A stretch of 18,842 bases of DNA from a virus. Below, in pieces: positions 1,531-7,285 of the stretch. The stretch lies in UHGV virus genome UHGV-0125022. The stretch is one strand, 5' to 3'. Positions within the stretch are counted from its first letter, which is position 1; the number at the start of each line of letters is the position of its first letter. The notes under the pieces are model-generated. The model was not told where the DNA came from. It was given only the letters and a program-made list of their open reading frames with translations, and did no database searches. A program made the position numbers and the translations under genes.

Positions 1531-1791
1531 ATAGACCTCCTGATGAACTTTGGTGGTGTGGTGGCTGGTAGTCTAGCTCCAGCTTGTTGAGTCTCATTCG
1601 GAGGGGTATAACCGGCACCCCAGTGATTTTTCCATGCGACAACGTGCGCGTTATGGCGGCCTTATCGCCCGCGGCTCCCCATCTCGTCCACGCTATTGCT
1701 AGCGTTGGGAGCGCTTCACCGCTCAACAGTAGGTAAGCACTTGCCAGTGACTAGCTGGCTTCACCACACCCCAAAGTTCACTTTGGTTATT

Positions 1792-1806
1792 GCGCTTTGT
1801 CAGCGC
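1792..1806 (-). promoter_or_regulatory. nutL boxB hairpin (GCGCUGACAAAGCGC on the leftward transcript)
   Basis: 5-bp stem GCGCU/AGCGC with GACAA loop, the same loop as the nutR boxB at 4828-4842. No canonical boxA (CGCTCTT) found upstream of it. Confidence 0.6.
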
Positions 1807-6104: not shown

Positions 6105-6998
6105 ATGAATACGACAAATGGTTACAATCTGGCACTGCAAAGGCAACTTGTAGACTCAAAAATCAATGACATTTCTGATCTGAAACAGAAACTTGAGTTT
6201 AGCAAAATTGGATCAGTATCAGATGGAATGTCAGTTACCAGCACAGTGGAAGAGTGCGAGAAACACGGTAAATATACTTCCTATGAGAAATATCTGACCA
6301 TCTCAGGAAAAAGAATTACTTCAAGTAAATCTGAGTGCCCACAGTGCCTTGAGGAGAAAATTCGTAAGAAAGAGATTGAACGTGAGCAGGCAGAACAAAG
6401 AGCAAGACAATCAAAAATTGAATATTTGTTGAATTCTCTCAATATTCCAGAGAGGTTCAAAAATTGCACTCTTCAGAATTATGAGCCTGTTAACGATGAT
6501 GCAAAGCGAGTTCTTAAGGTATGCCAGGCATATGCCAGTAAGTGGCCTGAACGCCTTCAAAAAGGTGGCGGACTGGTCATGTGTGGTAAGCCTGGAACTG
6601 GAAAGAACCACCTTGCACTGGCTATCGCTAGGCACGCCATTATCGAGCATCAAAGCTCTGTGATATTTACCACTGCGTTGAAAATTGCCAGAGAGTACAA
6701 ATCAACATGGTCTAAGGCCGCAACCAGAACTGAAGAAGAAGTCATTAGGCAATTTACGCATCCTGACTTGTTAATAATCGATGAGGTTGGCGTGCAGTTC
6801 GGCAGTGATGCTGAAAAGCTAATCATGTTCGAAATTATCAACACCAGATATGAATACATGAAGCCAACAATCCTGATTAGTAATCAGAGCAAAGATGAAC
6901 TTTCGGCATTCATTGGTGAGCGTGTTATTGACAGGATGAATGATGGCGGAGGGTGCACTCTTGCGTTTACATGGGATAGTTACAGGAGCAGATCGTGA
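6105..6998 (+). CDS. DnaC/IstB-type AAA+ helicase loader (functional counterpart of lambda P)
   Basis: Walker A GKPGTGKNHLA and Walker B LLIIDEVG. AGGAGTGA Shine-Dalgarno before the ATG at 6105. The ORF track extends to 6087, but 6105 is preferred. Confidence 0.85.
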   Translation: MNTTNGYNLALQRQLVDSKINDISDLKQKLEFSKIGSVSDGMSVTSTVEECEKHGKYTSYEKYLTISGKRITSSKSECPQCLEEKIRKKEIEREQAEQRARQSKIEYLLNSLNIPERFKNCTLQNYEPVNDDAKRVLKVCQAYASKWPERLQKGGGLVMCGKPGTGKNHLALAIARHAIIEHQSSVIFTTALKIAREYKSTWSKAATRTEEEVIRQFTHPDLLIIDEVGVQFGSDAEKLIMFEIINTRYEYMKPTILISNQSKDELSAFIGERVIDRMNDGGGCTLAFTWDSYRSRS

Positions 6999-7285
6999 CT
7001 GGAAAAGAAATCATCCTGGAATATCTGAAAACTCATGAACAATTCTCCCCACATGAATTAGCTCTGATCACCGGAATACCAAATAACAGAATCGCTCAAG
7101 CAGCAAGGCATATGGTGAAACAAGGGCATTTGAGTGTTGTTGAGCGTAAGTGGAAGATGGTTATTTATGCAAAGCGCAAAGTGAAGAAGGAGCCAATTAA
7201 AAGAAATCCAGATGGTACGGGGTGGGGATGTGCAAATCCAATGACGGCGTTTATTAATAGGGCGCTTATGGAGGTAAGGCAATGA
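6995..7285 (+). CDS. ren: Ren-like protein
   Basis: N-terminus MTGKEIILEYLKTHEQF resembles lambda Ren (MTGKEAIIHYLGTH...) as recalled. GTG start overlapping the upstream stop. Confidence 0.65.
   Translation: MTGKEIILEYLKTHEQFSPHELALITGIPNNRIAQAARHMVKQGHLSVVERKWKMVIYAKRKVKKEPIKRNPDGTGWGCANPMTAFINRALMEVRQ

Follow-up and report, generated by a model that had tools for sequence, protein, structure and literature searches.

The N leader of the lambdoid virus UHGV-0125022: a lambda-type closing helix around an exchangeable structured interior

The pL leader between nutL and N

The stretch of virus genome UHGV-0125022 analysed here (18,842 nucleotides (nt), referred to as the window) comes from a lambdoid phage, of which it covers the immunity and early region; its leftward genes are on the minus strand. 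Between its nutL site and its N antitermination gene lies a long structured RNA leader, closed by a helix of the kind present in the lambda N leader. All the leader elements, namely boxB, the arms of the helix, the interior that they enclose, the Shine-Dalgarno (SD) sequence and N itself, are read on the minus strand. The predicted pL promoter (1903-1875; -35 TTGCCA, 17-nt spacer, -10 TAAAGT) is the sole promoter-like site within 1100-2200. The transcript start can be placed at A1868, because the next 15 nt, ATCAGCAGGACGCAC, are the first 15 nt of lambda pL RNA; from there, the leader would extend over about 338 nt to the N AUG at 1530. It is known that nut sites are made up of boxA, boxB and boxC (PMC2724277, PMC10250234). 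The nutL site of the window (1858-1792) is of the 933W/H-19B type and near-identical to the annotated nutL of 933W (AF125520). Its boxB, GCGCTGACAAAGCGC (1806-1792), is identical to the boxB within the annotated 933W site, and the boxB stem has a pairing probability of 0.99-1.0 in the ensemble fold. The N gene (1530-1147), also of the 933W/H-19B type, encodes 127 amino acids (aa) and matches the Pfam family N_peptide (PF25694, E 2.8e-15).

A preliminary description of this stretch had pointed to a gap of about 260 nt between boxB and the N start codon, to its GC richness within AT-rich surroundings and to a complementary 9-mer at its flanks. The gap measures 262 nt (boxB 1806-1792, N start 1530), and the GC content over 1550-1750 is indeed 0.55-0.61, higher than in N (0.43-0.51) and in the pL/oL region (0.26-0.44). 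The 9-mer, GGTGTGGTG, is found at 1555-1563 on the plus strand and at 1762-1770 on the minus strand, these being exactly two copies in the 18.8-kilobase (kb) window, where 0.12 copies are expected by chance. Moreover, the complementarity extends beyond this 9-mer into an adjoining perfect 10-nt inverted repeat (1544-1553 / 1771-1780).

In the RNA, 1781-1762 pairs with 1563-1543 to form a closing helix, P1, of 20 base pairs (bp), including one G-U wobble and one bulged A (1554). The 5' strand (1781-1762) is made of a lower segment, GUGAACUUUGG (1781-1771), and an upper segment, GGUGUGGUG (1770-1762). The 3' strand (1563-1543) is made of CACCACACC (1563-1555), the bulged A1554 and CCAAAGUUCAU (1553-1543), and it reads ...C-A-CCA, resembling the 3' end of a tRNA. 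We take the GU-rich 5' strand to be the boxC of nutL, and the helix formed by the arms to be the RNase III site of the lambda N leader. With 20 bp and one bulge, P1 amounts to about two helical turns of double-stranded RNA, a size suited to the RNase III of E. coli. It encloses a 198-nt interior (1761-1564), and the domain closed by P1 (1548-1776) is 57% GC. The SD sequence of N, AGGAGG (1541-1536, by direct reading of the sequence), begins 1 nt past the 3' end of P1. The 311-nt leader is predicted to fold at -117 kcal/mol, far more stably than its shuffles (z = -4.7), and P1 together with the two terminal hairpins of the interior has ensemble pairing probabilities of 0.86-1.0.

Conservation and covariation of the closing helix

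The arms of the window, CUUUGGGGUGUG and CACACCACCAAAG, with the bulged A, exactly match those of the lambda N leader (NC_001416). In lambda, where the N AUG is at +223 of the pL transcript, the arms CUUUGGGGUGUGUG...CACACACCACCAAAG bound the segment +83 to +201. The same arms enclose the interior of the window in HK544, which has a lambda-type pL, nutL and N, and a different interior in 933W, which has the nutL and N of the window. Scans of IMG/VR using both arms and a variable gap yielded 247 loci with the helix. A second scan left all but the 3' lower arm and the ribosome-binding site free, save for a base other than C demanded at the second upper pair. Here, a complementary 5' arm was found at 47 of the 53 loci retrieved, with variant upper stems that include GAUGCGAUG/CAUCGCAUC, GAAAGCGU/GCGCUUUC, GAUUGGAUG/CAUCCAAUC and GGUGACGUG/CGCGUCACC.

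Across lambdoid phages, 50 distinct arm pairs could be compared. They have 94.6% of their cells paired and show compensatory, both-sided changes at 12 of the 20 pairs of the helix, a covariation that none of 500 shuffles reached. The five lowest pairs, unconstrained by any search pattern, also covary. Little or no variation affects the core CUUUGG/CCAAAG, the bulged purine or the first G-C pair, in part as a result of the search design. A protein-anchored genome scan, which covered 8 loci only, gave the purine-CCAAAG sequence in all seven loci that retain a leader. The preliminary description had likened the leader to the RNase III-processed N leader of lambda, with the reservation that the structure might not be conserved and that the complement might be missing in relatives. 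That reservation falls away because the helix is kept in 247 loci and covaries. The identity of the arms and of their position with those of lambda, together with the covariation, makes the two helices homologous, beyond mere analogy.

Enterobacterial lambdoid N genes with their leaders were also met on short contigs attributed to Xanthomonas pisi (L251) and to metagenome-assembled genomes of Segatella copri (L254, L255), the N of L251 being 98% identical to that of the window. These contigs probably result from contamination or mis-binning.

The 5' strand of P1 has a second possible partner. A local hairpin, CCAAAG-UGAA-CUUUGG (1786-1771, predicted at -6.4 kcal/mol), involves an upstream copy of CCAAAG (1786-1781). 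This hairpin and the long-range helix are mutually exclusive because both use the same CUUUGG. When the nascent transcript is folded, the local hairpin forms as long as the 3' arm is missing and gives way when this arm appears; at equilibrium, the hairpin has a probability of 0.0 and the long-range helix takes over entirely. Nearly all leaders (lambda-type, 933W-type and others) have a second CCAAAG or CAAAG upstream of CUUUGG, the loops in between being variable, and at L254 this copy and the 5' arm have changed in concert. The alternative pairing may guide folding during transcription or serve as a switch.

Exchange of the interior

Clustering of the 247 loci yields at least 19 unrelated interiors of about 45-200 nt within the same helix. 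Over all the leaders collected, the enclosed spans, arms included, range from 71 to 229 nt. The interior of the window (type 1) is 99.5% identical in Sf6, Sf101, HK544, HK446, HK633, mEp043, mEp213 and Bas106, and it is present in 60 of 5426 complete E. coli genomes. It is absent from 933W and HK97, both of which share the nutL and N of the window. Its partners are lambda-type N genes at more than 30 loci, 933W-type N genes at 10 loci, and other arginine-rich N types. The interior is thus a cassette that reassorts freely with N and nut types. The window itself is a three-way mosaic of an mEpX1-like immunity region, an Sf6/HK544-like leader interior and a 933W-like nutL and N, the junctions of which fall at the helix arms. 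The arms would also account for the mosaic break that recurs where immunity regions meet early-left operons.

Comparison with the two nearest leaders illustrates the exchange. The lambda leader has in common with that of the window the position between the boxB of nutL and the ribosome-binding site of N, the arms, the bulged A and the upstream CAAAG copy. It differs by an unrelated interior of about 88 nt, against 198 nt in the window, which forms an irregular hairpin, whereas that of the window is a multi-branch domain with two terminal hairpins. Moreover, the SD sequence lies about 7 nt from the helix in lambda and 1 nt from it in the window, and the nutL and N of the window are of the 933W/H-19B type. 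The leaders of 933W, H-19B and HK97 share with the window a near-identical nutL, the helix arms, the ribosome-binding site and the N gene. Their interior is another one ('type 0', 100 nt, with a helix span of 133 nt), whereas the window has the interior of Sf6 and HK544.

At one locus (L105, IMG/VR 3300045988_069239, 6730-7140), two cassettes stand in tandem, that of the window and then that of 933W, with SD-ATGACACGCAGA fused at the junction to the tail of a second boxB. This arrangement is a recombinant formed within the leader. An origin of the type 1 interior from a mobile element or a gene fragment was also considered and rejected: the lone partial BLAST match, annotated under a 'packaged DNA stabilization protein' pseudogene, is a deletion end-point in a decayed prophage.

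Architecture of the type 1 interior

The 198-nt interior (1761-1564) folds as a multi-hairpin domain. Its first hairpin, P2 (GCCAG-CUAGUCA-CUGGC, 1759-1743; pairing probability 0.93-0.94), stands 2 nt (AA) past P1, where a tRNA would have its D-arm. The last one, P3 (GCUGG-AGCUAGACUA-CCAGC, 1583-1564; pairing probability 0.99-1.0), abuts the 3' strand of P1, in the position of a T-arm. Between them, an internal hairpin, CCA-CGCUA-GCAA-UAGCG-UGG (1708-1688), carries a GCAA tetraloop of the GNRA class. Divergent relatives of type 1 were sought in phage, E. coli and metagenome searches, and only copies at least 95% identical were found; deep covariation of this interior is therefore unobtainable. 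Among 13 natural variants, the internal hairpin shows two compensatory double changes (G-C to A-U and C-G to U-A), and the stems of P1, P2 and P3 are invariant, while position 1754 of the P2 loop varies.

The loop of P2 contains UAGUC (1753-1749), complementary to GACUA (1573-1569) in the loop of P3. In the 13 variants, these five complementary bases of each terminal loop are unchanged while neighbouring loop bases vary, which suggests that P2 and P3 may be joined by a 5-bp loop-loop contact. Several unrelated cassettes follow the same plan: the helix leads through an A-rich linker of 2-3 nt to a hairpin, the middle is variable, and another hairpin abuts the helix. In the related types 3, 7, 13, 14 and 15, the first loop contains GCUGA and the last UCAGC. 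Type 8, which shares their first hairpin, has UCAGU in the last loop, and a G-U wobble would preserve the pairing. In type 10, the loops GACUA and UAGUC are the pair of the window swapped. A loop-loop complement of at least 5 nt is thus found in 3 of 14 independent lineages, one of which, type 10, was parsed manually once such contacts had been suspected. Under the null model, the cross-pair frequency is 0.5% and three lineages were reached in none of 5000 shuffles.

tRNA-derived cassettes in the same helix

Judged from its sequence features, one cassette family is tRNA-derived. It consists of the type 4 cassettes, of 143-145 nt, enclosed in the N-leader helix, and of rarer kin at loci L268 and L336. 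In all of these, a D-arm with a GG loop is followed by a T-arm, GCUGG-UUCGA(C/A)U-CCAGC, placed directly before the helix strand, and then by A-CCA. The L268 cassette, in which a 70-nt insert replaces the anticodon arm, scores 39.6 bits on the Rfam tRNA model RF00005 (E 2e-7; gathering score 29). Type 4 matches tmRNA only in part, at 13 bits. The consensus cloverleaf of type 4 shows compensatory changes at 13 of 39 pairs (22 sequences). The family is present, unannotated, in 92 phage GenBank records, from phages of Salmonella, Escherichia, Pantoea and other hosts, and has no Rfam family. Its loci include L201 (3712-3856), L250 (about 655-800), L253 (1340-1483), L268 (1544-1686), L336 (465-607) and others.

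At five further loci (L317, L325, L352, L359 and L408), a tRNA-like cassette has a UUUUGG lower arm and is followed by a boxB-like hairpin, CAUUUCUCCCGCAUCAGCGGGUAAC, and not by the N ribosome-binding site. This suggests a different order of the nut elements and the cassette.

The cassette of the window has a tRNA-like outline only. Its P3 has the T-stem of the tRNA-like cassettes, GCUGG/CCAGC, unchanged, and by sequence the end of the helix could fit that of an acceptor arm (G1770-C1555, A1554, C1553, C1552, A1551, with P3 abutting). As in a tRNA (RF00005) or the tRNA-like domain of a tmRNA, the helix is followed by a purine and CCA, a 2-nt linker leads to a hairpin, and a final 5-bp hairpin would stack on the helix. 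The differences are that the window has no anticodon arm and that its acceptor-like helix has 9 bp, with 11 bp more that sequester the CCA, paired in the stable fold. The loops CUAGUCA and AGCUAGACUA show neither the T-loop (UUCRANY) nor the D-loop (GG) consensus; in its place, they have a 5-bp Watson-Crick complement to each other. No tRNA or tmRNA was found by ARAGORN in the window or at the leader of 23 related loci, tRNA-like ones included. Since its loops are of neither the D nor the T kind and all tRNA models miss it, the window cassette is not classed as a tRNA-like RNA, and by no model is it a tRNA. Membership of the tRNA-like family was also tried with a covariance model of that family (R1) and rejected: the window scores 39.2 bits, of which 25-32 are already reached by unrelated interiors through the shared helix, and the surplus of about 8-10 bits, which comes from the P3/T-arm and two short motifs, does not discriminate.

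Possible roles of the leader

N is the first gene expressed by a lambda-like phage, its level feeds into the choice between lysis and lysogeny, and the N leader is a classic case of control by RNA structure and RNase III. In lambda, some 200 nt separate nutL from N downstream of it; the translation of N is repressed by N and Nus factors at NutL, the RNA between nutL and N is highly structured, and RNase III modulates the repression (PMC5725501, citing Wilson 1997 and 2002). By analogy, the leader of the window is probably a cis-acting element that works as in lambda and controls both the translation and the processing of N. The helix would draw the nutL-bound complex of N, Nus factors and RNA polymerase next to the N ribosome-binding site, where N would repress its own translation. 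As an RNase III substrate, the helix would be open to a cut that separates nutL from the N message and lifts the repression, and N synthesis would thereby be tied to the level of host RNase III. The helix may, in addition, keep the long untranslated leader folded and deny Rho a loading site. In such a scheme, recombination within the near-invariant arms would swap interiors between phages, and the interior would be an exchangeable compact domain.

Several points weigh against this scheme. Cleavage and autoregulation were demonstrated for lambda only, and the lambda mechanism is taken here from a secondary citation. The type 1 interior is nearly clonal (13 close variants), and covariation of its internal fold is limited to one hairpin. 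Finally, a short interior, such as that of the epsilon34 type (about 40 nt), would suffice for compaction and cleavage alone; the conserved architecture of the 198-nt interior and the selection on the tRNA-like cassettes suggest that interiors may do more.

In an unlikely reading, compatible with the cis role, the helix serves mainly for excision, and the interior is its product, a stable RNA of about 215 nt with the shape of a tRNA that acts in trans. RNase III would release this RNA from the pL transcript, possibly with trimming by RNase P and completion by the CCA-adding enzyme, and it could serve as a tRNA mimic or decoy. The canonical D- and T-arms of the type 4 family and its cloverleaf with 13 compensatory pairs speak for such a cargo, as do the passing of the Rfam tRNA threshold by L268, the bulged purine and CCA with which all leaders end the helix, the presumed lambda cuts given below, and, in the window, the T-stem of the sister cassettes in P3 and the 5-nt complementarity of the P2 and P3 loops, such complements being present in 3 of 14 lineages. 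The rrn operons offer a fitting analogy, since a functional RNA is excised there by an RNase III helix. Their boxC forms the 5' half of this leader-trailer helix and is presumably carried to its distant partner by the antitermination complex (PMC10250234, PMC8632103). In both systems, a GU-rich boxC just past a nut-like site starts a long-range helix around a structured RNA. The rrn helix, however, encloses the 1.5-kb 16S rRNA, a known product, whereas that of the window encloses a 198-nt domain and is followed by an mRNA, and there is no sequence homology past the GU-rich character. Excision of a cargo sits poorly with the window cassette, which neither ARAGORN nor Rfam recognises, whose loops are not D- or T-loops and whose CCA is base-paired in the stable fold. 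The interiors of lambda and 933W are without tRNA-like arms, and one of the three kissing cases is the manually parsed type 10 pair.

The preliminary description had also raised the possibility of an independent small RNA. As a separate gene, such an RNA is not supported, since no promoter-like or terminator-like site was found inside 1540-1790; a small RNA released through leader processing is possible. Rfam searches of the whole window at gathering thresholds, and of 1400-2200 at E <= 10, gave no match over the leader to any family, tRNA and tmRNA included, and no match was obtained over the leader of 13 related loci. The known prophage small RNAs of enterohaemorrhagic E. coli, AsxR/AgvB and Pas, were considered as candidates and set aside, being located at the PR' moron site or elsewhere, outside the N leader.

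One may go further and regard the near-universal N-leader helix of lambdoid phages as a mimic of an acceptor stem and the leader as a launch pad for trans-acting tRNA-shaped RNAs, a view that we hold to be rather improbable. If it were true, beside the plainly tRNA-derived type 4, L268 and L336, other cassettes, that of the window included, would have swapped the elbow made by D- and T-loop for a loop-loop helix of 5-6 bp. The released RNA would be a tRNA mimic, a decoy or an enzyme ligand, the cut would also license N translation, and the second CCAAAG copy would switch between RNase III-type and pre-tRNA-type folds. We presume that RNase III cuts the lambda leader at +88/89 and +197/198. These presumed cuts would fall between CUUUGG and G1 and between C72-A73-C74-C75 and AAAG, and would leave a tRNA-like end missing only A76.

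At the other extreme, only the closing helix would matter, the interior being a neutral spacer or a recombination scar whose hairpins reflect GC richness. That interiors are unrelated in sequence and that the enclosed span varies from 71 to 229 nt would then be expected; type 1 shows almost no divergence, hence no sign of long-term selection, and the tandem double cassette of L105 indicates that the region tolerates gross rearrangement. Neutrality nevertheless appears doubtful. The fold exceeds that of shuffles of the same composition (the z-score given above), and the same architecture recurs in unrelated cassettes, with a hairpin after the helix, a hairpin abutting the helix and complementary loops. 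In addition, compensatory evolution is strong in the tRNA-like family, and two compensatory pairs are found within type 1.

Processing of the tRNA-shaped cassettes by RNase P, and not by RNase III, is very unlikely. In that case, the local hairpin would free the 3' A-CCA and the domain would resemble a pre-tRNA. The conserved upstream CCAAAG copy does give mutually exclusive pairings, the local hairpin forms in nascent RNA, and the stack of helix and P3 with purine-CCA resembles known RNase P determinants. Nevertheless, the long-range helix displaces the local hairpin entirely at equilibrium, the acceptor-like stem has 9 bp and not 7, and processing of the lambda leader depends on rnc.

That the region encodes a small protein is extremely improbable: an 81-aa open reading frame (ORF) exists at 1726-1481 and the annotation of one genome, Bas106, calls a 60-aa coding sequence ('hypothetical protein'), but the ORF starts with TTG without an SD sequence, overlaps the N start in another frame, has no Pfam match, is disrupted by 1-nt indels in natural variants of 228 and 230 nt and changes its C-terminus with the type of N downstream, while all records but the one with that call leave the interior unannotated. 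This agrees with the preliminary description, which had seen no convincing ORF.

These data suggest that the lambda leader is one member of a large family, in which a conserved, covarying helix surrounds a hot spot for exchangeable structured RNAs. The lambda-type helix is of a kind known already; the cassette site and its tRNA-derived members were unexpected, and there is no Rfam family for them. This view bears on the length of N leaders, on the role of the boxC of nut sites and on the production by phages of tRNA-like RNAs from the pL leader.

Genome setting

Upstream of pL, the cI-like repressor gene (4442-3738, minus strand), with a Peptidase_S24 match, is separated from the promoter by two genes (3538-2130, minus strand) in the position of lambda rexA/rexB. 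Their products of 159 and 310 aa correspond to the PADLOC candidate defence proteins PDC-M63A (Pfam DUF6932, E 1.8e-41) and PDC-M63B (E 6.9e-45), respectively. An intrinsic terminator (2123-2104) follows the pair. The two genes are also found as gp42/gp41 of mEpX1, the phage with the closest immunity region. In mEpX1 (L424, 613-1289), a short leader precedes an N-like and a Nun-like gene, in place of which a 933W-type nutL-N module with a long cassette has been acquired in the window.

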